DNA of 64,000 nucleotides from Chloroflexota bacterium (lineage in GTDB: Bacteria; Chloroflexota; Anaerolineae; Promineifilales; Promineifilaceae): the NCBI GenBank assembly GCA_014584575.1, contig JACTMP010000063.1:1-64000 (forward strand). The letters run 5' to 3'. Position numbers and translations under genes: made by a program. This document shows, piece after piece, positions 491 through 41,264 of this stretch; position 1 is the first letter of the stretch; every line of letters begins with the position of its first letter. The notes beneath the pieces were generated by a model. That model had not been told where the DNA came from. It did no database searches and saw only the letters and a list, made by a program, of their open reading frames with translations.

Positions 491-1165
491 ATGAATCGTG
501 ATACGACACTCCTTGTTCAGTCGTGGCAGAAAAACGCCTGGTTGGCCCTGGTGGGGGCGTTATTGGTCTTGAGTTCGGCGTCCTGGGTGCAAGCCGGCGG
601 TGGGTACAACATCGCTTGGTGGACGGTAGACGGCGGCGGTGGCAGCAGCAGCGGCCCCACCTATAGCGTCAGCGGCACGGTGGGCCAGCCGGAGGCCGGC
701 CCGGCGATGAGCAGCAGTTCCTACACTTTTTTCGGGGGCTTTTGGAGTTTGCTAGCCACCCCAACTTCACCCCCACCGTGGGCAGGAAAAGTTTACCTGC
801 CACTTACTGTCAAACCAGTCCCGTGTTTTAACGATGGAGAGGAGCGTAATCCCAACAACTCCACCACAGAAGCAAACACAAACGGGCTGCTTTGCGATGA
901 CGGCACGTATACCGGTAGATTTGATGACCAAAACGACTATTACGCCCTGCGCATGGGTACGACTGGTCTCATTGATATCAGCCTTGCCGGGTATACTGGC
1001 CCTGACGTTCAAATTTTGCTCTATTATGAGGGCGAACAGGTGGGGCAAGGGTATACACCCGATTATCGCATCAGTTATACCGGCCCCACCGGGCTGTATT
1101 ACATTCGGGTATTTATACCAGCGGCCAATAACGCCAGTTATTCGTTGCACGTGAATTTCCCGTGA
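491..1165 (+). CDS. secreted protein: signal peptide, conserved GQP/GFW N-terminal module, YLPLTVK motif, C-terminal PPC (pre-peptidase C-terminal) domain
   Basis: N-terminal hydrophobic signal (LALVGALLVLSSASWVQA). The C-terminal 90 aa (DDQNDYYALRM...GLYYIRV...YSLHV) match the PPC domain pattern from memory. Shares the module YSVSGTVGQP...YTFFGGFW and a YLP motif with the ORF at 35210..35500. Confidence 0.55.
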   Translation: MNRDTTLLVQSWQKNAWLALVGALLVLSSASWVQAGGGYNIAWWTVDGGGGSSSGPTYSVSGTVGQPEAGPAMSSSSYTFFGGFWSLLATPTSPPPWAGKVYLPLTVKPVPCFNDGEERNPNNSTTEANTNGLLCDDGTYTGRFDDQNDYYALRMGTTGLIDISLAGYTGPDVQILLYYEGEQVGQGYTPDYRISYTGPTGLYYIRVFIPAANNASYSLHVNFP

Positions 1166-1260
1166 TGATGGTAATCTGTAGGGGCAAGGCGGCTGGACAA
1201 GATATCAAGACCGCATCCCGTTTCTAGCTGCCTCGCTCCTACGGTTTCTTTGTGGGCGTT

Positions 1261-1464
1261 TTAGGACAGCCCCACCACTTTGCCTGTTTCCAGGTCAACG
1301 TCAATCTCGTAATACACCGGCCGAATCGGTAGTCCCGGCATCGTATTCACCGCCCCCAGCAGCGGGTAGAGAATATCTGCCGTGAGTCTGGCGGTAAAAT
1401 CACCCAATTTCATGGGAAAATTATACCTGTTGCCTGCCGCCTGGGTCATGTTAAAATGCTGCAT
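1261..1464 (-). CDS. hypothetical small protein
   Basis: ORF only; no recognisable motif. Confidence 0.2.
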   Translation of the reverse strand: MQHFNMTQAAGNRYNFPMKLGDFTARLTADILYPLLGAVNTMPGLPIRPVYYEIDVDLETGKVVGLS

Positions 1465-1487
1465 GTAGGGAATCCCCGGAGGAAAAC

Positions 1488-1682
1488 ATGATTAAGCTCA
1501 AGGAACTAAACGTTCAATATATTACCAATGAATCCGGTGAACGCAGCGGCGTCATTCTTTCCATTGAGGATTTTGAAGCCTTATTGGAAGATTTGGAAGA
1601 CATGGCGCTCGTCGTCGAGCGCCAGCATGAACCAACCATTTCCCATGCAGAACTGAAAGCCGAACTATACCTGACAAGGTGA
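1488..1682 (+). CDS. Phd/YefM-type antitoxin-like protein (orphan)
   Basis: 64 aa. The pattern GVILSIEDFEALLEDLEDMALVVERQHEPTISHAELKAEL is typical of type II antitoxins. No toxin ORF follows; the next gene is holB. Confidence 0.45.
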   Translation: MIKLKELNVQYITNESGERSGVILSIEDFEALLEDLEDMALVVERQHEPTISHAELKAELYLTR

Positions 1683-1710
1683 CAAGGTGACATCTGACAA
1701 GGTGACAAAA
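1670..1710. repeat. tandem 8-mer array (A)GGTGACA x4 overlapping the stop of the antitoxin-like ORF
   Basis: ggtgacaaggtgacatctgacaaggtgacaaaa read directly. Confidence 0.8.
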
Positions 1711-1870
1711 ATGTCAGATTATGACCTTCGAAAAGACGCCTATCGCAATTAATAGCCCCTCTGGCTACGGCCGTTCTCCAGACCGTGCCACCCCTCTCGA
1801 AGAGGGGAGGACGACGGCCGTCGCCTAATCTCACTGGCGCCCTTGTTTGTTCCTGAAGAGTAATCGGATA

Positions 1871-1900
1871 ATTACCCAATTGCCCAATTACCCAATAAAA
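1871..1900. repeat. tandem heptamer array CCCAATT(A/G) upstream of holB
   Basis: aattacccaattgcccaattacccaat read directly. Confidence 0.7.
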
Positions 1901-1907
1901 TACCGCC

Positions 1908-2993: not shown

Positions 2994-3059
2994 AATACAA
3001 CCACCACCCCCCATTCCCGTATACCTCTGCGTAGCAATTGCTGGTAAAATGACGACATC

Positions 3060-19056: not shown

Positions 19057-19065
19057 GAATCACAC

Positions 19066-21940: not shown

Positions 21941-22015
21941 GGTAATCGGTGAACGGTAATCGGTTATCGGTGGGAGCAACCGATTACCGATAACTGATGA
22001 CCGATTACCGACTAC
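21941..22015. repeat. inverted heptamer arrays (GGTAATC family and its reverse complement) forming a ~35 bp stem hairpin between manA and the FtsX permease gene
   Basis: ggtaatcggtgaacggtaatcggttatcggtgggagcaaccgattaccgataactgatgaccgattaccgactac. Confidence 0.8.
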
Positions 22016-24909
22016 GCCGTTTCACCTAACTTCACCGCCTGGAAAATCTTCATCCGCCGCAGCAAGATGCCCAATACCAGCATCGCCACCAAAAACAGCG
22101 CGCCAAAGAGCAGCGCAATCTGACTCACCGCACTCCAGGCAATCTCCACCAGATACGGCGGCGTCAGGTCGCTGGTCTCCGCGCCAATTTGTAAAAACGG
22201 GATGAACAACTGGCTCACCCACGAGCCAAGCAAAATGCCCAATCCCAACCCGGTGAGAATAAGAAAACCCATCTCGCAGGCCACAAAGATCAACATCTGC
22301 CCCTGCGACAATCCCACCGCCCGCAAAATGCCCAGTTCAATAAACCGCCGCCGGAACGAATACAGCGCATACATAAAAAAGCCCATCACCGTCAGCAGCG
22401 CCGCTGCCAGAAAACCAACCGACAGCAGGCCAAATAATCCCTGCCGCTCTGGGCGTGTCTGTTCCTGGCGAATCCCGGCATATGGTTCCAGCCAGCGCCA
22501 CTGGTTTAGCTGCCGGTCGCGCAACGCCTGGTAAAACGCATCTTCGTCAAAATCCGGCGACGTGCGCATCCACACCCGGTACGGGAAATCGCTGCCCGCC
22601 AGGGCAAACAGATTGTCCAGATTACCCACAAACAGCGGCCCCGCATCCGGGTACCAGGTGGGGAAATAATCGAACGAACCGAGAATCTGGGCGTTCAACT
22701 GCACATGCGCTTCTCCCATGCGCACATCTAGCCGCACAAAGTCGCCCACGCGCAGCCCCGACTCCGCCAGGAAATGGTTGGCAACCAGCACCCCATCTGG
22801 CGACGCCGCCAGCAAATTGACCAGCGACCCCAGCCGGTAAGGGGCAAAATCATACCGCCAGAAACCGACCGCCGGAAAAGAAGTGCGGTCAATGCCATAA
22901 AAAGCGCCGTTGTAATTGTTGTTACCCACCCGCGCCGTGGCCGCATACGTGCCCACCGGCGCCGCCGCTTCCACGCCGGGGAATTGCAGGTATTCACTCA
23001 GCGGCAGGTAAATGGCGCGGCTGAAGGAGGGCGTGCTGCCGGGCATATTGGCAAAACTGCTGCTGGCGCCATATTCTCGCCCCGGCCCTTCCAGATTCAG
23101 GTCAGCGCCGACCCGGTAGCGGTAATCATCGTAAAGTTGGTAGTCCAGCGTCAACGCCAGCGAGGCCGTGAAGACGGAGAGGCTGACGGTGAGGACGAGC
23201 AGAATGAGCGGCGTGGCATACGCGCGCGGGGTACGCGCCAGGTGGCGGGCCGCCATCAGCAGCCCCACGCTGTTAGTGCGAAACAGCAGCCAGCTAATGG
23301 CTTCCATCAGCCAGGGCAAGATGCGCAGCGCGAACAGGGTGAAAGCAAACACCGCCAGCGCGGGCAGTAAAAAGAGCAGCGGATTGGCAAACGGATCAGT
23401 CGCTGCTCCTTCGCCAATGGCAATGAGCGAACCTTGTTGCTGCAACAGGTAAAAACCATAGACGGTGGGGATGAGCAGCAGCACGTCCAGCCAGATGCGC
23501 TGATACCAGGGTTTACCGGCGCTGCGTGCCTGCCCTTGTTTGTAGGTGATGATGGTGTCGCGGGCGGCGGAGATGGTGGGCAAAACCTGGGCCAGCAGCG
23601 CCAGGCCAATGGCAATGGCCCCCGCCCGAAGACCGGCGTCGTTGAGGGCCACGCGCAAGGTGGTATCGGCCGTAAAGTCCATAAAACTGCGCGCCCGCCC
23701 CATCAATTGCGTGAAGCCCAATCCCAGCACTGTGCCTAATGCCCAGGCGACCAGGCCGAGCAGCACTCCTTCCAGCACGGCAAACCCAACCACCTGCCAG
23801 GGAGTGGCCCCGCGGCTGCGCATGACGGCGATCTCGTTGCGCCGCTGGTCTACAGCCAGATTGACGATGAGGGCGATGAAGGCCAGGATGAGGAAGATGA
23901 TGGGGATGTTGTAGGCGGTGAGCAGCACGGTAAGCTGGCCAACGGCGCGCTGGTAGGACAGCATGGGGTCGGCAGGCGTCAACTGGTTGGAGGTGTCCGG
24001 CAGCAGGTTGCTAACTTGCCGCTCCACTTGTTGGGCGCGGGCGATCAATTCATTCACGTTGCCGGTATTCACCCGGCTGCCGTCCAGCACCAGGTACCAG
24101 GTTGCCAGATGGATTTCATCATCCAGCAGCGGGGCCAGCCGGTTGGGAAATATCTCCTCCGCCACCAGCAGCAGGTCGTCGAAGACGGAGGGGGCGAAGA
24201 ACCAGAAAGGGGCGCGCTCGTCTTTGGGCCGCCAGACACCAGCAACGGTCAGTGGCAGGTCGCGGTGGGGGGCGGTGGGGTTGCGGAAGTTGTAGGCGAT
24301 GAACTGGTCACCGGCTTGCAGACCCAACTGGTTAGCGACAGCTTCGGCGACGAGGACTTCGATGGGGCCGTCGGCAGTGTATTGGGGAAAACGGCCGTCC
24401 ACAATCTCAATCGCCTCTTCCATTTTCTGTGTCGTTGCCAGGTGGAAGATGCCCAGCGAGCGGTCATCGCTATAGCTTTCGGCGCCCACCGGGAAAAGGC
24501 GGTAGCGGTCCGTTTCCAGATGACGAATGACGATCTCTTCGGGCAGCCCCAGGGCCGTCGCCGCCCGATTTTGTAGATAATCATCCAGCGGCTGGATCGT
24601 TTCCCACTCGACAGCGCCATACCAGGCGCCGATGTAGTTGTAGAGATAGGCAAAGGGGGGGCGCCCGCCACGCTGCGACTGGTTGCTCAGCCGCTCCTGC
24701 AACATGCGGAAGTTGACAGCGTCGGCGTACAGCGGCACGGTGGTGATGAGGGCCACGGCGATGGTCAGGCCAATGAGGGTCACGGTCGTCAGCCCTCGCT
24801 GCGCCCAGAGACGTTTGAAGGTAATGGTGAAAATGGCGCGGGTGCGGTAGAGGAATGACATGGTGTGATATTGGTAATTGAGTAATTGGGTAATTACCCA
24901 ATTACTCAA
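22012..24909 (-). CDS. FtsX-family ABC transporter permease with two FtsX domains (MacB-type)
   Basis: 965 aa with two four-TM FtsX modules, each preceded by a large periplasmic domain. The first 16 codons of the ORF translate the palindrome, so the likely start is the Met at 24861 (MSFLYRTRAIF). Confidence 0.75.
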   Translation of the reverse strand: MSNWVITQLLNYQYHTMSFLYRTRAIFTITFKRLWAQRGLTTVTLIGLTIAVALITTVPLYADAVNFRMLQERLSNQSQRGGRPPFAYLYNYIGAWYGAVEWETIQPLDDYLQNRAATALGLPEEIVIRHLETDRYRLFPVGAESYSDDRSLGIFHLATTQKMEEAIEIVDGRFPQYTADGPIEVLVAEAVANQLGLQAGDQFIAYNFRNPTAPHRDLPLTVAGVWRPKDERAPFWFFAPSVFDDLLLVAEEIFPNRLAPLLDDEIHLATWYLVLDGSRVNTGNVNELIARAQQVERQVSNLLPDTSNQLTPADPMLSYQRAVGQLTVLLTAYNIPIIFLILAFIALIVNLAVDQRRNEIAVMRSRGATPWQVVGFAVLEGVLLGLVAWALGTVLGLGFTQLMGRARSFMDFTADTTLRVALNDAGLRAGAIAIGLALLAQVLPTISAARDTIITYKQGQARSAGKPWYQRIWLDVLLLIPTVYGFYLLQQQGSLIAIGEGAATDPFANPLLFLLPALAVFAFTLFALRILPWLMEAISWLLFRTNSVGLLMAARHLARTPRAYATPLILLVLTVSLSVFTASLALTLDYQLYDDYRYRVGADLNLEGPGREYGASSSFANMPGSTPSFSRAIYLPLSEYLQFPGVEAAAPVGTYAATARVGNNNYNGAFYGIDRTSFPAVGFWRYDFAPYRLGSLVNLLAASPDGVLVANHFLAESGLRVGDFVRLDVRMGEAHVQLNAQILGSFDYFPTWYPDAGPLFVGNLDNLFALAGSDFPYRVWMRTSPDFDEDAFYQALRDRQLNQWRWLEPYAGIRQEQTRPERQGLFGLLSVGFLAAALLTVMGFFMYALYSFRRRFIELGILRAVGLSQGQMLIFVACEMGFLILTGLGLGILLGSWVSQLFIPFLQIGAETSDLTPPYLVEIAWSAVSQIALLFGALFLVAMLVLGILLRRMKIFQAVKLGETA

Positions 24910-29696: not shown

Positions 29697-32600
29697 GTGC
29701 GCTGGCCTCAACGTATTTATCTCTTCGGTAGTTTTCGGGCTGAACCCCCGCTCACCCTTTCCGGCCGCCAGGCACAGCGATTGCTGGTTTATCTGTTGCT
29801 GCATCCAGAACGGGCACACGGCCGTGACCGGTTAACCGCCCAACTCTGGCCCGATACCCCACCCGACCGCGGCCGCCGCGCCCTCTCTGACGCCCTCTAC
29901 CGCCTGCGCCAGACCGCGCCCGACCATTGGTTTGATGCCCAACCGGAAACCATCGCCCTGATCCCGCCGCCCGACTTGTGGGTGGATGTGTGGGAATTTG
30001 AACGGCTGGCCGCCCCCGAACCGGCCACCGCCGCGGCGTTGTACCAGGGCGACCTGGTGTTGGAAATTGAAGACGAATGGATTTGGGGGAAACGGGAACG
30101 GCTGCGCGAACAACTAACGGCCGTCCTGCTGCAATTGGCCGAGACCGCCGAAAATAACCAGCAATACGCAACCGCCGCCGGATTTTACGGCCGTCTCGCC
30201 GCCCTGGACGAACTCAACGAAGCCGCCCAACGGGGCCTCATGCGCGGCCACGCCGCCCAGGGCCGTCTGGCTGAGGCGCTGGCCGTTTACGAAGAATTCC
30301 AACAACTCCTGGCTGCCGAACTGAATGTGGCCCCCGCCGCCGCCACGCAGCAGTTGGCGCGGCAGCTACAGGCCGAATGGGAACTGCAACAGGAAACGGC
30401 CGTTGGCCTGACCACCACCCCTTTTGTTGGGCGCACGGTGGAACGAACGCACCTGCTGGCCCGGCTGGACGAAGCCCGCGCCGGGCGCGGCGGCCTGGTG
30501 GTGCTGCTCGGCGAAGCGGGCATGGGCAAAAGTCGCCTGCTAGAAACGCTGGCGCAGTCCGCCGACTGGCGCGGCTGGCAGGTGGGGTGGGGATGGGGTG
30601 AACAATTTGCCCTGCCCGCCCCCTATGCGCCGCTGGCCGAAGCGCTCACGGCCGTATTACCCCGCCCCCGCCTGCAACAACTGGCCCGCCTACTGCCCCC
30701 TTGGCCCCTGGCCCAGGCCAGCCAGATCGCCCCCGCCATTGGCCGCGATTTACAACTGCCGCCGCCGCCCGAATCCAGCCGCCGCGAACAGCAGCTACCC
30801 GTCGCCCTGCGCCTGCTGCTGGACGGCCTGCAACAAATCGCCCCCCACCTGCTCATCCTGGACGATATGCAGTGGGCGGACACGGCCGTGTGGCCCCTGC
30901 TCACCGATTTGCAACCGGCGCTGGCGGAACAGTCGGTGCTGCTCATCGTCAGCGGTCGTTTGGGCGAACTGCGCCAGCAAACGGCCGTGTGGCAAACGCT
31001 GACCGCCTGGGAGCAGCAGGGGGCGCTGGTGCTGCAACTGACCGGGCTGGAACCGCAGGCGCTGGCCGAAATGGCGCGGGTCTTGGGGCGTGGGCCGCTG
31101 AGCACCGCGGCGCTGGCCCGTCTGCATCAGGCCAGCGGCGGCAACCCGCTGCTGGCTCAAAGCCTGCTAGAACTGGACGATCCCGCCGCTCAACCGGAAC
31201 TGATTTCCTTGCAGCGGCAGCGGTTGGCGCGGTTGTCAGACGCCGCCCTGCTGTCGTTGCAAGCCGCCGCCGTCCTGGGGCTGCATTTTGATTATGACCT
31301 GTGGGAGGCAGTGATGACCGGCATCCCCGCCGCCGAATTGCCCACCCTGGCTGGGGAGTTGGAAGAGCGCCGCCTGCTCATTTTGGAAGCGGACGGCTAC
31401 CGCTTCAGCCATGACACCTTGCGCGCCTGCGTTTACCTGGACACGCCCGCCGAACGCCGCCAGCAGTGGCACGGCCGTGCCCTTTCCGCCTATGCCCGTT
31501 TACGCCCCGACGCCACCCTTTCCCTGCTCTACCATGCCCAGGAAAGCGGCGACGGTACGGCCGTTGCCCGCTACGCCCTGTTGGCCGGGCAGGAGTGTCT
31601 GCCCCGCTACGCCAACCATACCGCCCGTGACCTGTTCACCCAGGCGTTGGCCGCCCTGCCGCCCGACGATGGGCCAAACCGGTATGCGGCACTGTTGGGG
31701 CGGGCGCGGGCGTTGGGGGCGATGGGCGAACGGGATGCTCAGGAGGCCGACCTGGCCCACCTGCATACCCTGGCCGGGCAGTTGGGCGACCCCGCCAAAC
31801 TGGCGCACGTCCTGGCTTTGCAGGCCAAGTTCTACTGGCAGACTTCCGATTTTACCCGCGCACGGCAGACCATAGAGGCCGGTCTGCAACTGACGCCAGA
31901 ACCAGACGCCCAGGCCACCTTGCTGGAAACACTGGGCCAGGTGGAGCGCGACCAGGGCAATTACCAGGCGGCGCGTGACAACTTCGCCGCGGCCGGGCAG
32001 TTGTACCGGCAGTTGGGCAACAGCGCCAGCGTGGCCAACAACTATGTGATGGCCGGCATTGTGGCGCAGCGGCTCAACGATTTTCCGCAGGCCATCGCCC
32101 TCTTCCAACAGGCGCTGGCCGATGGCCGTGCGATTGGCAGCCGTTCCCTGGAAACGTTGGCCCTGGGCAATCTGGTGACGGTGCATTGGGGCATGGGGGA
32201 TTACCAGCAAGCCATTGGCTACGGGCAGCAGGCGTTGGCCTTAGGCCGGGAAGTGGGCGAGGTGTGGGCGCAGGCCAGCAGTTTGGGCAACCTCGGCGCT
32301 CTGTATGCGCTGACCGGCGATTTCCCGGCGGCCATTGAACACATGCAGCAGGCATTAGCCATCCAGCGCCTTACCCGTGACCGCCAGTCGCAGGCGATCA
32401 ATTTGAGCAATCTGGCGAATCTGTACCTGGATACAAGCCAGCTTGACGAAGCCATCTCCTTGTTCACAGAAGCGCTTGATCTGAACCGGCAAATGGGGCG
32501 TCGGCGCAGCGAGGGGTATGCGCTGCACGGCCGTGGCGTCACCTATTATCAGGCCGGGCGATTGGACGAGGCGGTGGCGGATTTGCAGACGGCCGTTCAC

Positions 32601-33221
32601 ATCCGCGCCGAATTGGGCGAAGTCAGCAACCTCTGTTTTACCCAGGCCGACCTGGCGTTGGCGCTGTTGGCGCAGGGAGATGTGGCCGCTGCTGACGATG
32701 CCGTGCAGACAGCGCTGGCCGGTCTTTCGCCGAAAACCACGCCGGAAGCGCGGCAGCAGGCTCATTTTGCCGCGTATGAAATTTTGCTGGCGCAGGGAAA
32801 GGAACCAGGCGCTTTACGCCAACTGGCGCTGGCGGAACAGGTGTTATGGCAAACGGCCAACGCGCTGCCGGAAACACAACGGCCGTCCTTCCTGCAATTG
32901 AACCCGCGCAACCAGGTGGTGCTGACGGCCGTGCAGCGCCACACCCGCACCGAACAAGTCCAACTCGTCAAAGCCGATGTCCCCTCCGGCCGCCGCCTGA
33001 CCGACGCTGATTACACGGCCGTGACCTGGACGCTCACCACCGTCGCCGATGAACTGGCGGACTCGCCCGCCGCCCGCCGCCAGCAGGTCATTCAACGCCT
33101 GCTGCAAGAAGCCGCCGCCCAGGGCACAGCCCCCACCGACGACGACCTGGCGCAAGCCCTGAACGTCAGCCGCCGCACCATTTTGCGTGACCGGCAGGCA
33201 GTAACTTCCCGTGATGCGTGA
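29697..33221 (+). CDS. SARP/AfsR-like regulator: BTAD domain, STAND P-loop NTPase, TPR repeats, C-terminal HTH-like tail
   Basis: BTAD pattern in the N-terminus (LFGSFRAEPPLTLSGRQAQRLLVYLLLHPERAHGRDRLTAQLWPDTPP...RQ). Walker A (LGEAGMGKSRL). More than 10 TPR-like repeats (YQQA.., GNL..). C-terminal segment DDLAQALNVSRRTILRD resembles an HTH. Confidence 0.7.
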   Translation: MRWPQRIYLFGSFRAEPPLTLSGRQAQRLLVYLLLHPERAHGRDRLTAQLWPDTPPDRGRRALSDALYRLRQTAPDHWFDAQPETIALIPPPDLWVDVWEFERLAAPEPATAAALYQGDLVLEIEDEWIWGKRERLREQLTAVLLQLAETAENNQQYATAAGFYGRLAALDELNEAAQRGLMRGHAAQGRLAEALAVYEEFQQLLAAELNVAPAAATQQLARQLQAEWELQQETAVGLTTTPFVGRTVERTHLLARLDEARAGRGGLVVLLGEAGMGKSRLLETLAQSADWRGWQVGWGWGEQFALPAPYAPLAEALTAVLPRPRLQQLARLLPPWPLAQASQIAPAIGRDLQLPPPPESSRREQQLPVALRLLLDGLQQIAPHLLILDDMQWADTAVWPLLTDLQPALAEQSVLLIVSGRLGELRQQTAVWQTLTAWEQQGALVLQLTGLEPQALAEMARVLGRGPLSTAALARLHQASGGNPLLAQSLLELDDPAAQPELISLQRQRLARLSDAALLSLQAAAVLGLHFDYDLWEAVMTGIPAAELPTLAGELEERRLLILEADGYRFSHDTLRACVYLDTPAERRQQWHGRALSAYARLRPDATLSLLYHAQESGDGTAVARYALLAGQECLPRYANHTARDLFTQALAALPPDDGPNRYAALLGRARALGAMGERDAQEADLAHLHTLAGQLGDPAKLAHVLALQAKFYWQTSDFTRARQTIEAGLQLTPEPDAQATLLETLGQVERDQGNYQAARDNFAAAGQLYRQLGNSASVANNYVMAGIVAQRLNDFPQAIALFQQALADGRAIGSRSLETLALGNLVTVHWGMGDYQQAIGYGQQALALGREVGEVWAQASSLGNLGALYALTGDFPAAIEHMQQALAIQRLTRDRQSQAINLSNLANLYLDTSQLDEAISLFTEALDLNRQMGRRRSEGYALHGRGVTYYQAGRLDEAVADLQTAVHIRAELGEVSNLCFTQADLALALLAQGDVAAADDAVQTALAGLSPKTTPEARQQAHFAAYEILLAQGKEPGALRQLALAEQVLWQTANALPETQRPSFLQLNPRNQVVLTAVQRHTRTEQVQLVKADVPSGRRLTDADYTAVTWTLTTVADELADSPAARRQQVIQRLLQEAAAQGTAPTDDDLAQALNVSRRTILRDRQAVTSRDA

Positions 33222-33256
33222 TGCGTGAGGTTTTTGGTCACGCATCACGCATCACG
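33211..33256. repeat. inverted heptamer arrays TGATGCG x2 / CGCATCA x2 (hairpin) overlapping the regulator stop
   Basis: gtgatgcgtgatgcgtgaggtttttggtcacgcatcacgcatcac. Confidence 0.8.
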
Positions 33257-33329
33257 TTTTGTCACAACACTTCCCCCCACCACCTCTTCATACGACACCG
33301 CCACGATAACCACCGGGTAAGCTGGCGGC

Positions 33330-33536
33330 ATGGATCAAAGCAGCCCCTCGCCAAGCCACCTGTTTGTCATTCGCATTTGGGCGCAGGAAATTGAAGACGG
33401 CCGTACCGAATGGCGCGGCCGTGTGCAATACGTGCCAACGGGTGAAGTCCACTACTTCCGCGAATGGCCGGCCATGCTGGCCATTGTGCAACGTATGTTG
33501 CCGGGTGAGGGGGGAATAGTGAGCAGTGAGCAGTGA
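33330..33536 (+). CDS. hypothetical small protein
   Basis: 68 aa ORF. The C-terminus is encoded by the AGTGAGC array. May be real (FVIRIW...EWRG...GE.HYFREW) but unsupported. Confidence 0.25.
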   Translation: MDQSSPSPSHLFVIRIWAQEIEDGRTEWRGRVQYVPTGEVHYFREWPAMLAIVQRMLPGEGGIVSSEQ

Positions 33537-33610
33537 GCGGTGAGCGGTGAGCAGTTATCGGTTATTGGTATTGTGTGTTACGTTTCACGTGTCACGTGTC
33601 ACGTGTCACG
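33518..33610. repeat. two adjacent heptamer arrays: AGTGAGC/GGTGAGC x5 (33518-33554) and CACGTGT x3.5 (33585-33610)
   Basis: agtgagcagtgagcagtgagcggtgagcggtgagcag ... tcacgtgtcacgtgtcacgtgtcacg. Confidence 0.85.
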
Positions 33611-33623
33611 TCTGGAGGTAAAC

Positions 33624-35153
33624 ATGAATCGAAAGGTATTAAGCATCATTGGTATTGGTCTGGTTTGTCTGGCGCTGGTTGTGGTGAGCGGCGGGCGACA
33701 GTTGTTGGCGGATATGCAGGGGGGCGGCGGTGTGCCCGGCCTGATCAGCTATCAGGGTTTTCTGGCGGATGGCAACGGCGACCCGGTGGCTGACGGCAGC
33801 TACCCGATGAACTTTGCCATTTATGACGCTGGCAGCGGCGGCACGTTGATCTGGGCCGAAACCCACAGCAGCGTTACCGTTGGTGGTGGCTTTTTTGCCG
33901 TCCTGTTGGGCGGTGGCAGTTGTACCAATGGCTGTCCGTTGGGTGCGGACACCTTTGCCGGGCCAAATCGCTACCTGCAAGTCAGCGCCGAGACCGGCAG
34001 CGGTATGACCACCTTCCCGCGCCAGCAGTTAGCTTCTGCGCCGTATGCCTTACAGGCGGAACAGGCGGCCACATCCCCCTGGGATGGGCTGACCGATGTG
34101 CCCGCCGGTTTTGCTGATGGCGTAGATGATGACACGTTGGGGGCGTTGTCATGCACTCTTGATCAAATCCCCAAATGGAATGGCAGCGCCTGGGTTTGTG
34201 CGGCCGATGAAGTTGGCGGCGGGACCGGGTATGAAAATGTGATTACGGTAGCTACCAGTGGCGGCGATTACACCTCGGTGGCGGCGGCGCTGGCCAGCAT
34301 CACCGATAGCTCGTCTACCAACCGCTACCTGGTACAGGTGATGCCCGGCGTTTACACGGAAACCGACCTGGTGGTGGTAAAGGAATATGTGCATGTGCGT
34401 GGCTCCGGCCCAAATGTGACGGTCGTCACTTCGGCGCGCACGGGAGGCACGCCGGCCAATGGGGCGGCGACGGTAGATTTGTTGGACAACGGCCGTATCT
34501 CCAACATCACTGTGCGCAACACCGGAACCGGCACGTATGGCATCGCCCTCTACAGCGCCGAAACCACACGGGCGGCGGTGGTGGACAATGTGGTCGCCGA
34601 AGCCATCGGCGCGGGTGGCACCGGCCATTACGCCGCTTTCTGGAACGACGCCGAAGCCATCATCCGCAACAGCAGGTTGTTTGCCGGCGGGGCGACCGGA
34701 TTTGGCACCGGGGTCAACGCCGCCTTTGGCAGCGTGAACATCGCCGGTGGTTTCCCCCAGGCGCTCATCGAAAACAGCATCCTCATGGGCGGCTCCGCCA
34801 GCAACCTGGAAAACTGCAACGACAACAGCGGCACCGGTTTTGGGATGCAGCTCGCCAATTCTACGCCGATGGTACGCAGCAGCTACATCTGCGGCGGGCA
34901 TCGCGGCATCGCCCTCTACACCAATGGCAATCCGCAAATCCAAAACAGCAGCGTCAAAGTCAGTTCCACCGGCAGCGCCTTCCTGTTTGAGATTTCGGCG
35001 TCGGGCAGCATTTCGGTGGCGAATTCCGGCATCAGTTACGTGGGCAACAAGTTCACCGGCGCGGGCACCGGGCTGCGCTGTGTGCATAACTATAACCTGG
35101 GTTCCTGGGCGGCCCTGATCGATGGCACAACATCTGGCACCGCTTGTAATTGA
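33624..35153 (+). CDS. secreted right-handed beta-helix (pectate-lyase-fold-like) repeat protein
   Basis: ATG at 33624 after a GGAGGT RBS. Signal peptide (LSIIGIGLVCLALVVVSG). Gly/Asn-rich repeated NSxL/GG turns and a YENVITVATSGGDYTSV...VMPGVYTE segment typical of beta-helix proteins. Confidence 0.5.
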   Translation: MNRKVLSIIGIGLVCLALVVVSGGRQLLADMQGGGGVPGLISYQGFLADGNGDPVADGSYPMNFAIYDAGSGGTLIWAETHSSVTVGGGFFAVLLGGGSCTNGCPLGADTFAGPNRYLQVSAETGSGMTTFPRQQLASAPYALQAEQAATSPWDGLTDVPAGFADGVDDDTLGALSCTLDQIPKWNGSAWVCAADEVGGGTGYENVITVATSGGDYTSVAAALASITDSSSTNRYLVQVMPGVYTETDLVVVKEYVHVRGSGPNVTVVTSARTGGTPANGAATVDLLDNGRISNITVRNTGTGTYGIALYSAETTRAAVVDNVVAEAIGAGGTGHYAAFWNDAEAIIRNSRLFAGGATGFGTGVNAAFGSVNIAGGFPQALIENSILMGGSASNLENCNDNSGTGFGMQLANSTPMVRSSYICGGHRGIALYTNGNPQIQNSSVKVSSTGSAFLFEISASGSISVANSGISYVGNKFTGAGTGLRCVHNYNLGSWAALIDGTTSGTACN

Positions 35154-35163
35154 GCGAATCATT

Positions 35164-35197
35164 AACCTGACAGGTTTTCCCAAACCTGTCAGGTTTT
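35164..35197 (+). terminator. hairpin AACCTGACAGGTTTT / AAACCTGTCAGGTTTT after the stop
   Basis: aacctgacaggttttcccaaacctgtcaggtttt. The stem is followed by TTTT. Confidence 0.5.
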
Positions 35198-35209
35198 AAG
35201 GAGACAAAC

Positions 35210-35500
35210 ATGAAACGCATCAATAAAAAGTGGCTGGCGGTGCTGGTGCTGCTCACGGCCGTACTGCTCACTGTTGGTCTGGTCTTTGCCGGGGGTGACA
35301 TGCTGCCGCGCAGCCTGGTCAGCAGTGGCGGCGGGCTGGTCAGCCAGGGTGGGTATACCCTGCACAGCGCCATCGGCCAGCCGGTAGTGGGCGCAGTGCA
35401 AAACGAGGCCACGTTGTGCAGCGGCTACCTCTGCGGCGCAGACGCCCCGCCCGTGACCGGCGGCGGCTACCACATCTATCTGCCAGTGACGATTCGCTAA
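35210..35500 (+). CDS. small secreted protein consisting of signal peptide + GQP module + C-terminal IYLPVTIR tail
   Basis: 96 aa. Signal peptide (WLAVLVLLTAVLLTVGLVFA). The module YTLHSAIGQPVVG....SGYL aligns to residues 55-85 of the 491..1165 protein. C-terminal YHIYLPVTIR. Confidence 0.5.
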   Translation: MKRINKKWLAVLVLLTAVLLTVGLVFAGGDMLPRSLVSSGGGLVSQGGYTLHSAIGQPVVGAVQNEATLCSGYLCGADAPPVTGGGYHIYLPVTIR

Positions 35501-35512
35501 TCAACGATGCCT

Positions 35513-35600
35513 GTCATTCCGAGTGGAGTCTTCGGAACGAGGAATCCTACGTCTGCTTTTACTGCGCGAGATTCCTCGTCGAAGACTCCTCGGAATGACA
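35513..35600. repeat. MITE-like 88 nt palindromic element, copy 2
   Basis: TGTCATTCCGAGTGGAGTCTTCGGAACGAGGAATCC...GATTCCTCGTCGAAGACTCCTCGGAATGACA. Same termini as 8141-8228, with an internal stem. Confidence 0.7.
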
Positions 35601-35635
35601 GTTTAATTGCCTGAAATTTGTTTTGGAGAAAAACG

Positions 35636-38600
35636 ATGAAGACAAAACTTCTCTTGGTTGTATTCGTGCCCTTGCTGGTGTTAGTCGTGATCGCTCCCTG
35701 GCGGCACACGGCCGTCAGCGCCAACATCGCCCCCAACCCCAAACCACCTCTGGACGAAACATTGCTGGACATGGCCCAAACTCTGGGCACAGTTCCAGTC
35801 ATTATTGGCGTACACGTGCCCGGTTTTGCCCCGGAAGCGGCCGATGAAGCAGCACAAGTCGCGGCGATTCGTCAGGCGCAAACGGCCGTGCTCGACACAT
35901 TAGCCGGTCATAACATCCACAACGTCAAACAATTCCCCTACATCCCTTACATGGCCCTGTGGGTAGACGAAGCTGGATTGCTGACGTTGCAAGCGGACCC
36001 CACCGTGACCACAATCTATGAAGACCGGTTATACGCCCCGGCCACCAGCGACAGCACCCCTATTATCCGCTCCGACAGCGCCAACAGCATCGGCTATGGC
36101 GGCCAGGGGCGCACGGTGGCCGTGCTGGACACCGGCCTCAACCGCACCCATCCCGACCTGAACGGCAAAGTGGTCTCCGAGGCGTGTTACTCCACCTTCG
36201 ACCCCCTGGCCCTGGCTACCAGTTTATGCCCCAATGGTAACAACAGCCAGACCGGGACGGGTTCATCCAACCCACCACCCAATTATGTGACCGGTTACGA
36301 TCACGGTACCCATGTAGCCGGGATTGTGGCCGGGGTGGCGCCCCAGGCCACTCTCATTGGTATCCAGGTTTTTTCGCGTTTTACCGACATTGCCGGGTCG
36401 CCGCCTGGCCCCTTTACCCCTTGCGCCAACGGCGGACGGCCGTCGCCCTGCACCCTTTCTTATAGTTCTGACCAGATTTTGGGCTTGCAGCGCGTCTATG
36501 CCCTGCGCAACAGCTACAGCATCGCCGCCGTGAACATGAGCCTGGGTGGCGGTTCTTACGCCAGTAACTGTGACAGTCTCAATGCTGCCCTGACCACCAC
36601 CATCCTCAGCCTGCGCACGGCCGGGATCACCACCGTCATCTCGGCTGGCAATAACAGCTATCGCGGTAGCATCGGTGCACCGGCCTGCATTTCCTATGCC
36701 GTCAGTGTGGGTGGCACCACCTCCACGCCAGGCCCGGCGACGCCAGACCAGGTGGGCAGTTACTCCAACGCGGCCAGCATTATGACGTTATGGGCGCCCG
36801 GTGGCTGGATTCATGCGGCCGTGCCCACCTGGGCCACCAGTTGTGGGCCGGGCGTCTCCCCGACCAATAACCGTTGTTACAAACAGGGCACCTCGATGGC
36901 CGCCCCCCATGTGGCCGGGGCCTTAGCCGTCATGCGTTCGGCCGTGCCGGGCGCAACCGTGAACCAGCTCATCAGCGCCCTTACCAGCACCGGGCCATCC
37001 ATCACCGACCAGCGTTCGGGTGGGTTTGTGACCAAACGGCGGCTGGATGTATATGCCGCCACCTGTCAGTTGGCGGGGTGTGACCAGGACGATTTCCGCA
37101 CCCTGACGCTGAACCAGAGTTTGAATGGCTCATTGGGTGTCGGCAATGATTACACCGATGTTTATTATTTCAATGGCACGGCCAACCAGCGGCTGCGCAT
37201 CAGCATGAACCGGCTGTCGGGTACGCTCGACCCGTATCTGGTATTTGTAGACCCCAATGGCAATCTGGTGGCGGTGAATAATGATGGTGGGGCGGGCACC
37301 AATGCGCTGATTGACCCGGTGATATTGCCGGTTAACGGCCGTTACACCATCTATGCCCTGCGCGCTAATTCCGGCTCCGGCACCTACCAGATTCAGGTAT
37401 CACAAGGCACGTTTGGCGCAAACCCCGTGCCCACGCTGCTAAGCATGAACCGCACCTCGGCCACCGTCAACAGCCCCGCCGGTTTTTGGGTGGGGCTGAC
37501 CGGCAATAACTTCTCCTCTAATTCGGTTGTGCGCTGGAATGGGCAGAACCGGCCCACCTCGTATTACAGCAGCACCTTCATCTGGGGCTGGGTGAATGCC
37601 AGCGATACCAACGTTTTGGGCAACTACAGCATCACCGTCTACACCCCCACACCTGGCGGCGGCACCTCGTTTGCCCAAAACTTCCAGATCACCTCAGACC
37701 CGCTGGGGGTGAGCGAGATGTTGGCCCCGCTGCCGGACAGCAGTGTGCCCGTCGGCGTGCAGCAAACCTTTGCCATTAGCTGGACACACCCCATTAGCTC
37801 CTGGCGGGTGATGCAAAACATTGACATTCGCCTGAAAGATGTGACCGACCAGACGGCGTTTTGGATTCGTTTCACTGAAGGCAGCCCCACCAGCACCATT
37901 GGCCTGCTGAACAACAGCGGCGAACATATCGCCAGCAGCCCGCTGGTGAGTGGGCAATACGGCCAGCCGGGAGATATTGAAGTGCCGGATATGGTGACAA
38001 TGCACATGGCCAATACCATCTTTTTTGGCTCCGGGCGCACGGTGATTATCAGTCCCACGGTGACATTTGGCAGCCTGGCCCCTGGCCGCTACATGGTGGA
38101 GTTTACGGTGAACAATGACGAAGGGGAGGTGCAGGATGCGGATGTGGTGGGCGCGTTTTATGTGCTGCCACCGGGTTGTGATACGGCGCTGACCGGGGTG
38201 CAGGTGAATGGGCCGGACACAGGTACGGTGAACAGCAATTACCAGTTCACGGCCGTCATCACCCCCACCGCGCTCGCTGATGTCACCTATGTCTGGTCGC
38301 CAGAGCCGGTGAGTGGGCAGGGCACGGCCGTCGCCACCTTCAACTGGTCACAGGCCGGGATGTGGCCGGTGAACGTCGTCGCCCACCATTGCAGCGGTTT
38401 CCTGGCCGACGTAGCCACCATGGGCATTCGCACCACCGTTGCCCCTGACCTGGAAATCAGCAAGACGGCCCCGGCAACGGCCGTTGCCGGCGACCCCATC
38501 ACCTATACCCTGACCATCACCAACCGGGGCGGCACGGACGCCACCGGGCTGAGTATTACGGACACGCTGCCACCGGGCGCAACTTACGTCTCCGGCGGCA

Positions 38601-39451
38601 GCTACAACGGCAGCCAGGTGAGTTGGAACATTCCCACCCTGCCCGGATACGCCTTCGCCTCGGAGGTTATCGCTGTGGTGACGGCTAACGAGACGATCAG
38701 CAACAGTGTCTACAGCGTGACGGCGGCCGGGGGGTATAGTGCGGTGGGGCAGGAAACGGCCGTGACCCGCATCGTAGACGCCCAGGTAAGGCTGACACCG
38801 CTGTTGACCCGCACACTGCATTACGCGGGCAGCCAAAGTACAGAGATGACCGTGCCTTATGGTTCCGTCTTTGCCGAGACCATGCTGACCTACGACGAGT
38901 TGATGACGCCGCCATATCCGGTTCCATCCGGTTATGCCGGACGTGCCTTCCGCCTGAGTGGGTATCAGGATAACCAGATGATGCCCGACCTGGTGTTGGC
39001 GGAAACGGCCGTGATCACCCTCACCTATTCCCAGACGGCCGTCGCCGGGCTGGATGAAAACCTGCTGACGGTGCATTACTGGGACGGGAATGGCTGGGCA
39101 AGAAATGGGGTGACGTGTGAACGGGATGTGCAGGCCAATTGGGTAAGCTGCCACGTGCCGCGCCCGCCGATGACGGCCTATGCGCTGCTGGAAGGGCGCT
39201 CCACCATCTACCTGCCCTTTATCACCAATGGCCTGACGGCTGAACCCACCCTTTCGGCCACCATCACCGGCATCTCATTGGTGGGCAACCAGTATCATGC
39301 CAACTTCGCAGCGGCCCCTGGTATGTGTATGGTGGCGGCAGCCCCTTTACCGGGTACGGGGTGGCCGACCGGCCCCCGGCGGCCACGCAGCTCTGTGTCC
39401 TGGTGGCGAACCATGATCACAGCATCATTCTGGGCAGCGGCAACTGTATGA
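35636..39451 (+). CDS. S8 family serine peptidase (subtilase) with PPC domain and long C-terminal extension; 3' end frameshifted relative to its downstream duplicate
   Basis: Signal peptide. Catalytic D (VLDTGLNRTHPDL), H (HGTHVAGIVAG) and S (GTSMAAPHVAGALAV). PPC-like segment (DYTDVYYFNGTANQRLRI...GTYQIQV). The last ~48 codons are in a different frame from the intact copy at 41533-41929 because of a 49 nt deletion. Confidence 0.8.
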   Translation: MKTKLLLVVFVPLLVLVVIAPWRHTAVSANIAPNPKPPLDETLLDMAQTLGTVPVIIGVHVPGFAPEAADEAAQVAAIRQAQTAVLDTLAGHNIHNVKQFPYIPYMALWVDEAGLLTLQADPTVTTIYEDRLYAPATSDSTPIIRSDSANSIGYGGQGRTVAVLDTGLNRTHPDLNGKVVSEACYSTFDPLALATSLCPNGNNSQTGTGSSNPPPNYVTGYDHGTHVAGIVAGVAPQATLIGIQVFSRFTDIAGSPPGPFTPCANGGRPSPCTLSYSSDQILGLQRVYALRNSYSIAAVNMSLGGGSYASNCDSLNAALTTTILSLRTAGITTVISAGNNSYRGSIGAPACISYAVSVGGTTSTPGPATPDQVGSYSNAASIMTLWAPGGWIHAAVPTWATSCGPGVSPTNNRCYKQGTSMAAPHVAGALAVMRSAVPGATVNQLISALTSTGPSITDQRSGGFVTKRRLDVYAATCQLAGCDQDDFRTLTLNQSLNGSLGVGNDYTDVYYFNGTANQRLRISMNRLSGTLDPYLVFVDPNGNLVAVNNDGGAGTNALIDPVILPVNGRYTIYALRANSGSGTYQIQVSQGTFGANPVPTLLSMNRTSATVNSPAGFWVGLTGNNFSSNSVVRWNGQNRPTSYYSSTFIWGWVNASDTNVLGNYSITVYTPTPGGGTSFAQNFQITSDPLGVSEMLAPLPDSSVPVGVQQTFAISWTHPISSWRVMQNIDIRLKDVTDQTAFWIRFTEGSPTSTIGLLNNSGEHIASSPLVSGQYGQPGDIEVPDMVTMHMANTIFFGSGRTVIISPTVTFGSLAPGRYMVEFTVNNDEGEVQDADVVGAFYVLPPGCDTALTGVQVNGPDTGTVNSNYQFTAVITPTALADVTYVWSPEPVSGQGTAVATFNWSQAGMWPVNVVAHHCSGFLADVATMGIRTTVAPDLEISKTAPATAVAGDPITYTLTITNRGGTDATGLSITDTLPPGATYVSGGSYNGSQVSWNIPTLPGYAFASEVIAVVTANETISNSVYSVTAAGGYSAVGQETAVTRIVDAQVRLTPLLTRTLHYAGSQSTEMTVPYGSVFAETMLTYDELMTPPYPVPSGYAGRAFRLSGYQDNQMMPDLVLAETAVITLTYSQTAVAGLDENLLTVHYWDGNGWARNGVTCERDVQANWVSCHVPRPPMTAYALLEGRSTIYLPFITNGLTAEPTLSATITGISLVGNQYHANFAAAPGMCMVAAAPLPGTGWPTGPRRPRSSVSWWRTMITASFWAAATV

Positions 39452-39476
39452 ATTTGCCGTAAGCGTGGCCAAGACC

Positions 39477-39510
39477 AGACCCTAAGGGTTTCCCAAAACC
39501 CTTAGGGTCT
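39477..39510 (+). terminator. perfect hairpin AGACCCTAAGGGTTT-CCCAAAA-CCCTTAGGGTCT followed by TATCTTT
   Basis: Read directly. 15 bp stem. Confidence 0.55.
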
Positions 39511-39515
39511 TATCT

Positions 39516-41264
39516 TTGGAGGTAACTATGAAAAACCGGGAATTTTTCCTTTTGTTCAGCGCATTATTGGCGCTAAGTTTTGTCTTGTTTAACATTTTTG
39601 TTACCCACGCCGTTGCCGGTGTTTCCGGTGGTGGTGGGCAGTGGGTGGTGGATCGTCTGGATGACCCGACGCTGCCCGGCGGCTCAGCCTGCACGGAAGC
39701 GCCTGATGATTGCAGCCTGCGTGGGGCACTCAGCGTCTATAATTCGGGCGACCAGATCACCTTCGCCATCACGGGCACCATCACCCTGACCAACGGCGAG
39801 ATACTCATTGCCAATGGCGACGTGACCATCCAGGGGCCAGGCGCGGCCGACCTCATCATCAGCGGCGGTGAGACCAGCCGGATTTTCACCCTCGATCCCA
39901 GCCAGAATGTGACCATTACCGGCGTGACGCTGCGTGATGGGTTTGCCAGCCAGGGGGGCGCAATCTTCAACAATCTCAGCACGCTGACGCTGGCCGATTG
40001 TGTGCTGACGGAAAACACGGCCAGTGACTATGGCGGCGCGATTCAAAACAATGCTGCCACCATTTTCCAACGACCCGCCGGCGCACCCACCTGGGGCGGG
40101 GCGGACGCCCATTTGCTGATTGACAACTGTGTATTGAGCAACAACGCGGCCAGCGGTATAGAGAAAGAAGAGCAGTCTCACGGCGGCCCGACAGGAGTTG
40201 GCGGGGCCATTTACAATACGGCCGTAGGGCCGGGGGCAACGGCCGTTGTCACCATCACCCACAGCACCCTCATCGGCAATACGGCCGATGATGACTTTTA
40301 TGCCGGCGGTGCCATCACCAACTTTGGCTCCGCATTTACCATTCCGGGTAATACCCACGCCGCTGTCTATATCGCCGACAGCACCATCGCCAACAACAGC
40401 GCGCCGAATGGCGATGGCGGCGCTATCGCCAGCTATGCGCTGGATGCCGGTGCATCAACCGCCGTTACCATTCAGAACAGCACCGTCAGCGACAACTCGT
40501 CGGGCAGTGATTTTGGCGGCGGCGGCGGCATTTTCAGCTTTGCCTATAATCGTGATGAGGAGGGGTTGACAGAGGCGACCGTGAACCTGACCGGCAGCAC
40601 CTTTGCCAGTAATGCGGCCACAATGGACAGGGGTGGCGCTCTATTTAATGGCGCACTTGATAGCGGGTCAACGGCCGTCACCCATATCCTCAACAGCACT
40701 TTCAGCGGTAATACAGCGGCCGGCGTGGGCGGCGCTATCGCCAATGATGCCTACAACCGGGATGCGTTGGGCCTGACAAACGCCGCTCTCCACATCACCC
40801 ATGCCAGCTTTGTGGGCAATGATGCGGCTTCCGGCGGGGCCATCGCCAATGTGCCGGTCAGCGAGAACGGAACGTTGGCCGAAGTCCACCTGAAAAACGC
40901 TCTGCTGCACACCAGCAGCGGCGGCGACTGCCAGAACAGCGGCACCATTGATGGTGCCAACAACCTGATTGACGACGACACCTGCGGCACTGATGCCAGC
41001 TTCCGCCTGGGTGCGCCCACGCTGGTTTCGCCGACGCTGGCGGACAATGGTGGCCCCACCCTGACACACGCCTTGCTGGCAGGCACCAATGCCGAAGATG
41101 CCGTGCCGGACGGTGATTGTACGGTAGTCAACACCAGCACCGTCGTTATGGCGGATCAACGCGGTGTGGCCCGGCCTGTGGGCGCAACCTGTGATGTGGG
41201 CGCGGTGGAAGGGGTGATGGTGTCCTTTTCGTTTGGCATTTACCTGCCGGTGATTATCAAGTAG
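39516..41264 (+). CDS. CSLREA-domain / choice-of-anchor-Q-like secreted protein with Pmp (GGAI) beta-helix repeats and C-terminal IYLPVIIK tail
   Basis: Signal peptide. DDCSLRGAL (CSLREA-type) motif. Seven or more GGAI/GGAL repeats. C-terminal DQRGVARPVGATCDVGAVE motif. Ends FGIYLPVIIK. Confidence 0.6.
   Translation: MEVTMKNREFFLLFSALLALSFVLFNIFVTHAVAGVSGGGGQWVVDRLDDPTLPGGSACTEAPDDCSLRGALSVYNSGDQITFAITGTITLTNGEILIANGDVTIQGPGAADLIISGGETSRIFTLDPSQNVTITGVTLRDGFASQGGAIFNNLSTLTLADCVLTENTASDYGGAIQNNAATIFQRPAGAPTWGGADAHLLIDNCVLSNNAASGIEKEEQSHGGPTGVGGAIYNTAVGPGATAVVTITHSTLIGNTADDDFYAGGAITNFGSAFTIPGNTHAAVYIADSTIANNSAPNGDGGAIASYALDAGASTAVTIQNSTVSDNSSGSDFGGGGGIFSFAYNRDEEGLTEATVNLTGSTFASNAATMDRGGALFNGALDSGSTAVTHILNSTFSGNTAAGVGGAIANDAYNRDALGLTNAALHITHASFVGNDAASGGAIANVPVSENGTLAEVHLKNALLHTSSGGDCQNSGTIDGANNLIDDDTCGTDASFRLGAPTLVSPTLADNGGPTLTHALLAGTNAEDAVPDGDCTVVNTSTVVMADQRGVARPVGATCDVGAVEGVMVSFSFGIYLPVIIK

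Follow-up and report, generated by a model that had tools for sequence, protein, structure and literature searches.

The DNA analyzed here, referred to as the window, is a stretch of 64,000 nucleotides (nt) from a Chloroflexota bacterium of the family Promineifilaceae (contig JACTMP010000063.1). Several of its predicted secreted proteins carry a short motif centered on Tyr-Leu-Pro, the YLP-box, and two of them share an N-terminal module with the signatures GQP and GFW (GQP/GFW module). In Chloroflexota (Anaerolineae, Ardenticatenia, Thermoflexia, and relatives), the YLP-box forms an ultrashort tag at the very end of proteins whose N termini resemble signal peptides. The module is conserved throughout a very large family of secreted proteins of ∼95 amino acids (aa), of which it forms the core. 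The genes of this family are usually found immediately behind a gene for a trimeric tail-fiber-like protein with a conserved N-terminal domain. The box is portable between unrelated families and stands where other lineages, or a homolog, have a dockerin or a PEP-CTERM-like end. The best reading, to which a probability of roughly 55% is assigned, is that the YLP-box keeps proteins at the cell surface, as a retention tag that lacks a membrane helix, and that the module protein is a small adaptor between fiber and cell. A sequence-only reading of the window had drawn attention to the tail and the module; both parts of that observation are confirmed as real and conserved, and its interpretation as a whole is partly supported.

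C-terminal position of the YLP-box

The YLP-box follows the consensus [YHF]x[VIL]-Y-L-P-[LV]-[VI]-[LVI]-[RK], followed by 0 to 3 residues and the stop. A logo of 274 distinct tails, drawn from the loci described below and from retrieved proteins, shows Y (88%) or F (11%), L (98%), and P (100%), then L (65%) or V (17%), V (56%) or I (25%), a hydrophobic residue, and finally R (77%) or K (22%), the last position being fixed by the search pattern. An aromatic residue is often found at position -3 and V, I, or L at position -1. In 46% of these tails, the R/K is the last residue.

The census of tail proteins covers loci with module matches in one representative genome per species, located by scanning with an alignment of 11 sequences, together with three metagenome loci and the window, all with six-frame open reading frames (ORFs). 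The strict motif is terminal in 50 ORFs and internal in 2 in the Chloroflexota loci (398 kb), one of the internal cases being ORF 491-1165 of the window. At most six residues, usually 0 to 3, follow the box in 50 of the 52 strict matches (96%). With ∼4.6% of the motif start positions classed as terminal, this bias has a binomial P of ∼1e-64 overall and of ∼7e-29 for the proteins without the module (22 terminal versus 1 internal). The Verrucomicrobiota and Planctomycetota loci (664 kb) contain no ORF with a terminal strict motif, and among the loci examined the YLP-box is restricted to Chloroflexota.

The co-occurrence of tail and signal peptide, proposed as a check by the sequence-only reading, is observed in the census loci: by a heuristic rule, signal-peptide-like N termini are found in 28 of 31 tail proteins compared to 67 of 263 other ORFs (Fisher P = 1.6e-12). 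All four carriers in the window have a hydrophobic N terminus preceded by a basic residue. The carriers are presumably Sec exported. Of the 46 relatives found for the 96-aa protein at 35210-35500, 27 were aligned, with identities down to ∼52%, and nearly all of them end in [YF]LPxxx[RK]. The proline is invariant and the leucine nearly so, as is also the case in 71 sequences related to the module of 491-1165, and the conservation indicates that the tail is under selection.

All five sites listed in the sequence-only reading are present in the window. The box is terminal in two of them. IYLPVTIR (35474-35497, forward strand) is directly followed by the stop codon of ORF 35210-35500, and IYLPVIIK (41238-41261) ends the β-helix protein encoded at 39516-41264, with the stop directly after the lysine. 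An internal box, VYLPLTVK (791-814, forward strand), lies between the module and a PPC-like domain in ORF 491-1165 and is followed by 116 residues. The degenerate IYLPFITN (39206-39229) is internal in the subtilase ORF 35618-39451, and LYLPFITN (41624-41647), which falls just beyond the end coordinate 41264 of that earlier reading, is internal in the duplicated fragment ORF 41528-41929.

The two internal copies in the window are rare exceptions. ORF 491-1165 (forward strand) encodes a secreted protein of 224 aa, whose layout is deduced from the translation and its homologs: a signal peptide (∼aa 1-35), the GQP/GFW module (aa 39-85, nt 605-745), the internal box, and a PPC-like C-terminal domain. 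The earlier assignment of a PPC domain holds for homologs rather than for the protein itself, which has no Pfam or NCBIfam hit and in which PPC (PF04151, gathering cutoff of 25.9 bits) is not detected. Pfam does find PPC in homologs of the same architecture, P0299 (25.9 bits, exactly the cutoff) and P0341 (22.1 bits), and when the C-terminal half of 491-1165 is compared directly to the PPC domain of the subtilase, the similarity is not significant. The box remains internal in P0299 (VYLPMTLR), P0341 (VHLPLIQK), and P0313 (RYLPLVLR), with the architecture seen in 491-1165. In secreted peptidases, the PPC domain is usually cleaved off, and it may be speculated that removal of the PPC-like domain in 491-1165 would expose the box as a new C terminus. 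In the subtilase box of this lineage, N replaces R/K, and a domain of ∼105 aa, intact in the related locus L096, comes after the box; the added domain would have buried the box, with loss of the basic residue.

These internal copies bear on a different explanation, in which the box is only a maturation site where the S8 subtilase or an Arg-specific C11 peptidase trims the protein and nothing is anchored. They lie at domain boundaries, with a PPC-type domain next in 491-1165, P0299, and P0341, the box ends in R/K with 0 to 3 variable residues trailing, and the clusters contain proteases with YLP tails of their own. Such a role alone is nevertheless unlikely, because 46% of the tails end at the R/K and few residues trail the others, which leaves nothing to remove. 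In addition, of the 30 loci, only 2 have the subtilase, the C11 peptidase was encountered a single time, and trimming leaves the replacement of the box by dockerins in other phyla unexplained. The propeptide cleavage site suggested by the sequence-only reading could thus matter only for the rare internal copies, given the ≤6 residues behind the box in 96% of matches.

Curated models of the motif

The sequence-only reading regarded the signal as unrecognized. This does not hold, since NCBIfam (release 20.0) already curates exactly this motif in two models, NF050076.1 (sort_motif_YLP, 11 positions, cutoff of 15 bits) and NF053834.1 (ultrashort_CTERM, 10 positions, cutoff of 10 bits), both named "YLP-box putative sorting motif-containing protein." The models surfaced when a canonical homolog was scanned at E <= 1; the scan of the window proteins used E <= 0.1. 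The tail of homolog P0102 reaches 15.6 bits against the cutoff of 15. As a 30-aa excerpt, the tail of the β-helix protein 39516-41264 scores 13.6 bits on NF053834, above its cutoff of 10, and 12.3 bits on NF050076, below its cutoff of 15, and neither model is listed for the full-length protein. The two subtilase copies, also as 30-aa excerpts, score 13.7 and 13.0 bits on NF053834 (cutoff of 10). No match is reported at E <= 10 for the tails of 491-1165 and 35210-35500, HMMER filters dropping most such short matches. Among the 71 module proteins, 44 match NF050076 and 37 match NF053834, compared to 4 and 3, respectively, of the 27 relatives of the 96-aa protein.

The modeled motif and its position are identical to those of the window tails, the difference being the two window copies that are internal instead of terminal. 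The entries provide a name containing the word "putative" and give no enzyme and no mechanism. Beyond the curated motif, the new elements are quantitative backing for the tag, the extent and anchor swapping of the module family, and its tight pairing with MAT-like fiber genes (see below); all functional statements made about them are inferred.

Portability of the box and exchange of C-terminal ends

The 582-aa Pmp-repeat/β-helix protein of the window (39516-41264, forward strand) contains a choice-of-anchor Q domain (NF041518, 54.2 bits, cutoff of 25) at aa 507-565 (nt 41034-41210), which ends 17 residues before the stop. The "choice-of-anchor" domains of NCBIfam are domains that are found with differing C-terminal sorting signals across proteins. 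Among the homologs of this domain, P0126 has a PEP-CTERM-like end; P0142, P0152, P0164, P0197, P0204, and P0219 have YLP tails; and others end in nothing. Within the β-helix family, the tail is present in 11 of 13 members across 10 Chloroflexota loci. The subtilase ortholog of locus L014 ends in EYRVYLPQVIR followed by the stop, the sister cluster L096 has the tail on a C11 peptidase and on a 181-aa protein, and in the Chloroflexota loci the tail occurs on proteins of up to 1,634 aa.

The C11 peptidase of L096 (16142-18562), met once, is a Peptidase_C11 protein of 806 aa (clostripain family, clan CD) that ends in SIFLPVIVR directly before the stop. Clan CD includes the sorting transpeptidases PorU and GPI8. 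With the box ending in Arg, this peptidase is a possible processing enzyme.

The module in turn has lineage-specific C-terminal partners. The partner is the YLP-box in Chloroflexota, a GC-type dockerin in Phycisphaerae (NF041540, 39.8 bits, cutoff of 29), and dockerin-like repeats in other Planctomycetota and in a Binatia metagenome-assembled genome (MAG). The module ORFs of Verrucomicrobiota comprise 140 to 250 aa (L019, L025, L037, L055, and others) and end in a domain of ∼70 aa, a β-sandwich closing with GNxF[FY]RLxxP that is predicted with a predicted local distance difference test score (pLDDT) of >80 and finds weak Fn3-like matches only (Foldseek versus the PDB). The module protein P0247 has a hydrophobic-plus-Arg tail.

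The YLP stretch might be taken for the last structural β-strand of the GQP/GFW module, with no signal function at all, considering that almost every Chloroflexota module protein has it and that AlphaFold draws short strands there with low confidence. This is very improbable and already contradicted by the presence of the box on unrelated families, the 22 terminal copies on proteins without the module included; modules from the Planctomycetota-Verrucomicrobiota-Chlamydiota (PVC) phyla are likewise found without the box. In L021, module and box are set apart by an additional domain, yet the box keeps its place at the very end, which shows that it does not belong to the module fold.

The GQP/GFW module family

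The sequence-only reading proposed that 491-1165 and the 96-aa protein share an N-terminal module. A profile-profile comparison of the two module families (hhalign; probability of 98%, E = 1e-13) bears this out, with the correction that the proposed GGY(N/T)(I/L) anchor was slightly misaligned: in the true register, LPRSLVSSGGGLVSQGGYTLHSAIGQP of P2 pairs with YNIAWWTVDGGGGSSSGPTYSVSGTVGQP of P1. The 79 relatives found for the module of 491-1165 are mostly stand-alone proteins of 90 to 105 aa. A typical relative consists of a signal peptide, the sequence WWTVDGGGGxSSGGxYxLSGTVGQPEAGxxSGGxYxLxGGFW, a short linker, VYLPL[VIT][LV][RK], and 0 to 4 further residues. The 96-aa protein represents a divergent two-cysteine subfamily of the module.

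Out of 1.84 billion cluster representatives, a profile built from 71 module sequences matches 13,673 at E <= 1e-3; at the stricter E <= 1e-10, 6,278 remain. The strict box closes 107 of the 146 best hits, and most others have near variants such as HLPLVLR, YLPLITQ, and YVPVILRK at their end. The module being a known Pfam domain would have spoken against the sequence-only reading; no significant match was found in Pfam, in PHROG, or among PDB sequences, and no NCBIfam match comes near any cutoff. This leaves a very large family (13,673 cluster representatives) without a domain model. Two or three tandem copies of the module precede the anchor end in P0246, P0247, P0251, P0252, and P0269.

A weak similarity to PamT (NF058579, "CPR-type pilus protein"; CPR, Candidate Phyla Radiation) is found for 31 of the 71 module proteins (best E = 9e-5) and for several PVC versions, for example, L037 9053-9514. 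The module matches the first ∼95 (about 11 to 95) of the 241 positions of the model, and the match takes in the signal peptide. With ∼14 to 18 bits for three PVC module proteins, the scores fall far short of the 240-bit cutoff, and the similarity is treated as a possible lead and not as a relationship. Literature searches for PamT and for choice-of-anchor found nothing relevant. Locus L085, labeled Saccharimonadales, contains a Verrucomicrobiota-type sequence with an FFRL ending, may be misbinned, and provides no CPR sequence for the PamT link.

Pairing with fiber genes

The genes directly upstream of module genes encode secreted proteins of 400 to 1,300 aa, with intergenic gaps mostly between -6 and ∼120 nt. 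A conserved N-terminal domain is present in 24 of 41 sequences, comprising 40 immediately upstream genes and the window fiber, from Chloroflexota and the PVC phyla. It follows the pattern GFTYQGxL...YDFxFxLYDAxxGGxQVG...ARWLEVxVR...YTTLSPRQPxTxAPYA. The C-terminal parts of the fiber proteins are variable, and in some of them an S74-type intramolecular chaperone sequence, as is typical for phage tail fibers, can be recognized by eye.

In the window, the fiber-like secreted protein of 509 aa is encoded at 33624-35153 (forward strand), with its N-domain at aa 41-145 (nt 33744-34058). This N-domain is similar to the fiber N-domain of L014 (E = 5e-13) and to Bdello_MAT_N (NF053851; 35.8 bits, E = 6.3e-9), the N-domain model of the mosaic adhesive trimer (MAT) fibers of Bdellovibrio. 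The fiber genes described here thus share with the MAT fibers a related N-domain and variable C-terminal tips and differ in their host phyla and in the score of 35.8 bits against a cutoff of 60. According to Caulton et al. 2024 (PMC10769870), the MAT N-domain should bind a surface element, which was left unidentified there, and those authors explicitly left open how the MAT fibers attach to the cell.

The fiber gene belongs to a recurring gene order consisting of a regulator, a small protein of 68 to 80 aa, the fiber, the module protein, and then a subtilase and/or a β-helix protein. Positions 29697-41264 of the window are one such cluster. Over 30 Chloroflexota loci, the fiber recurs in 27, the BTAD-AAA-TPR regulator in 11, and the β-helix family in 10. 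The window cluster is headed by a BTAD/SARP-AAA-TPR regulator (29697-33221, forward strand; Pfam BTAD, AAA_16, and TPR_12), which is followed by a conserved protein of 68 aa without a signal peptide (33330-33536, forward strand) and by the fiber gene. The 96-aa module protein (35210-35500, forward strand) comes next, comprising a signal peptide, the divergent two-Cys GQP module (nt 35300-35437), and the terminal YLP-box. Anaerolineae MAGs encode copies of it with 92% identity, and in one case the copy lies on a 5-Mb contig that shares the gene order of the window. The cluster is completed by an S8 subtilase (35618-39451, forward strand) with PPC, a choice-of-anchor Z repeat, and DUF11 (Pfam and NCBIfam) and a frameshifted 3' end, and by the β-helix protein.

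Comparison with known sorting systems

The YLP-box resembles the PEP-CTERM/exosortase, LPXTG/sortase, and PGF-CTERM/archaeosortase systems in that proteins with a signal peptide carry, near the C terminus, a short proline signature with hydrophobic residues and then basic ones behind it. These signals, the YLP-box included, are all lineage restricted and portable between families, and a PEP-CTERM-like tail occurs, as the YLP-box does, behind a choice-of-anchor Q domain. In contrast, only three hydrophobic residues and one basic residue follow the proline of the YLP-box, and there is no membrane helix. The sorting or anchoring signal proposed by the sequence-only reading is accordingly supported as such by terminal bias, the link to signal peptides, lineage limitation, and anchor-equivalent position; the proposed likeness in build to LPXTG or PEP-CTERM is not, as there is no membrane helix, no basic cluster, and none hidden behind the stop. 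PEP-CTERM tails are absent from the window proteins, the PEP-CTERM-like end being seen in the one distant choice-of-anchor Q homolog P0126. A hidden membrane segment behind a recoded stop was considered and rejected, the downstream in-frame sequence not being hydrophobic. The stop codons of the tail genes (14 TGA, 10 TAG, and 8 TAA) mirror those of other genes.

Two window copies read LPLT and LPVT, as if the box were a degenerate LPXTG-type sortase signal. Of the explanations considered here, this is the least credible, and both the logo and the lack of a membrane segment already contradict it: Thr accounts for only ∼5% at the corresponding position and no Gly follows, and there is neither a membrane helix nor a basic tail nor an in-frame continuation past the stop, with normal stop usage. 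No sortase is present among the window ORFs scanned, and the sole hit to TIGR01167 (LPXTG) falls on a signal peptide and lies below the cutoff.

The dockerins, GC type (NF041540) or type I, are a further known counterpart, as they occupy the C terminus of the small module protein and, in Phycisphaerae, also end neighboring large proteins. They differ in being folded calcium-binding domains of ∼60 residues with cohesin partners, compared to the 8 to 11 residues of the YLP-box.

The combination of an N-terminal signal peptide and a C-terminal tag, its lineage restriction, and its occurrence on large enzymes and adhesin-like proteins might also be explained by a second export step, in which the box guides proteins past an outer layer or sheath after Sec, like the C-terminal domain of the type IX secretion system. 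This explanation is improbable. No conserved secretion machinery genes are found near the clusters, the equivalent elements in other phyla are docking domains and not export domains, and Chloroflexota are generally regarded as lacking an outer membrane.

A proposed surface-retention tag and fiber adaptor

For the preferred reading of the YLP-box as a retention tag and of the module protein as an adaptor, the following sequence of events can be proposed. After export and removal of the signal peptide, the tag would be recognized near the free C terminus, either by a receptor on the surface, to which it would bind as an additional β-strand, or by a processing enzyme; with either recognizer, the protein would stay on the cell surface. 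The module of the small adaptor protein would hold the N-terminal domain of the fiber, and the lineage-specific C-terminal end of the adaptor would fix the complex to the envelope. The gene order and the interchangeable anchor ends make the module protein a plausible candidate for the surface element left open for the MAT N-domain.

Several points weigh against this reading. The modules are predicted poorly in two AlphaFold runs (A2 and A4; pLDDT of 41 to 53), and a Foldseek search of the PDB finds nothing for the first model and, for the second, weak matches in the Verrucomicrobiota C-terminal domain only. Given this low pLDDT and the missing fold match, a contact between fiber and module has no structural support. 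With 35.8 bits, the window fiber is related to Bdello_MAT_N but not a member of that family. Eight residues cannot span a membrane, and retention by such a tag therefore has no precedent. No sortase, exosortase, or rhombosortase-like gene is found by Pfam among 37 window ORFs, which include all those on the flanks of the cluster. All-against-all clustering of 362 proteins from the 30 Chloroflexota loci yields five recurrent families (fiber, module, regulator, β-helix, and small protein), and neither a candidate sorting enzyme or receptor nor a polytopic membrane protein recurs near the genes. The co-distributed sorting enzyme that the sequence-only reading proposed to look for is thus missing both from the window ORFs and from the recurrent genes of related clusters. 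The signal peptides were called by a crude, home-made rule. Furthermore, all census loci were picked for holding a module gene, so that the number of tail proteins per kb is inflated relative to a whole genome. Finally, literature searches found no paper on the YLP motif.

A bolder version, in which the module protein is the missing surface adaptor for MAT-type fibers in several phyla, with swappable anchors, and the YLP-box a new class of signal free of a membrane segment, is possible but tentative. If the adaptor reading is true, the YLP-box might be processed by a transpeptidase, for which a clan CD C11 peptidase as in L096 would be a candidate.

The lack of a membrane-spanning part makes the YLP-box unusual among prokaryotic C-terminal sorting-type signals. 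A tag of ∼8 residues raises the question of how proteins are sorted and stay in place in Chloroflexota, a phylum with a poorly understood envelope. The motif is easy to score, and the surface proteomes of Chloroflexota should therefore be predictable from sequence. The pairing of module and fiber across Chloroflexota, Verrucomicrobiota, and Planctomycetota offers a concrete candidate for how MAT-like fibers attach to the cell.

Further features of the cluster and its flanks

The small protein of 68 to 80 aa is always encoded between the SARP-like regulator and the fiber gene and shows the pattern F(V/L)IR(I/C)W...WRG...YF. It has no Pfam hit. It occupies the same position in L001 to L006, L013 (6520-6750), L014 (8539-8781), and L096 (8162-8374). 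The loci L001 to L006, which are Logan metagenome contigs with the gene of the 96-aa protein, all stop ∼40 nt past this gene, corresponding to about 35500-35540 of the window. The shared end point suggests an assembly break shortly before the subtilase gene, due to a repeat or to strain variation.

A second copy of the 3' end of the subtilase gene is located at 41528-41929 (forward strand), where LYLPFITN is followed by an intact post-box domain. Two direct repeats account for the duplication, 39110-39308 matching 41528-41726 (96%) and 39308-39461 matching 41775-41928 (97%), with the copies flanking the β-helix gene on either side. The first copy lacks 49 nt, which leads to a frameshift of the last ∼48 codons of the subtilase. 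The relative in L096 has one intact copy, a subtilase of 1,305 aa, and different downstream genes, those for the C11 peptidase and the 181-aa protein.

ORF 491-1165 is a solitary module gene. Its upstream neighbor, ORF 47-466, lies directly adjacent and encodes two EPTP repeats (Pfam PF03736, E = 2e-24), a repeat domain best known from animal proteins.

Other YLP tripeptides of the window, in three real genes, are without the hydrophobic-plus-basic continuation and were dismissed as chance occurrences: those in an FtsX/MacB-like permease (22012-24909), an S9 peptidase (49597-51504), and an α/β-hydrolase (51552-52532). The S9 gene, of the prolyl-oligopeptidase family, lies 8 kb off the cluster; post-proline cleavage would fit a Pro-centered tag, and nothing links the two. 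Restriction-modification genes are located at 17950-20283 and 43341-46411, comprising a CfrBI-like endonuclease and an N4/N6 methylase as well as two more methylase-domain genes just past the rearranged end of the cluster.

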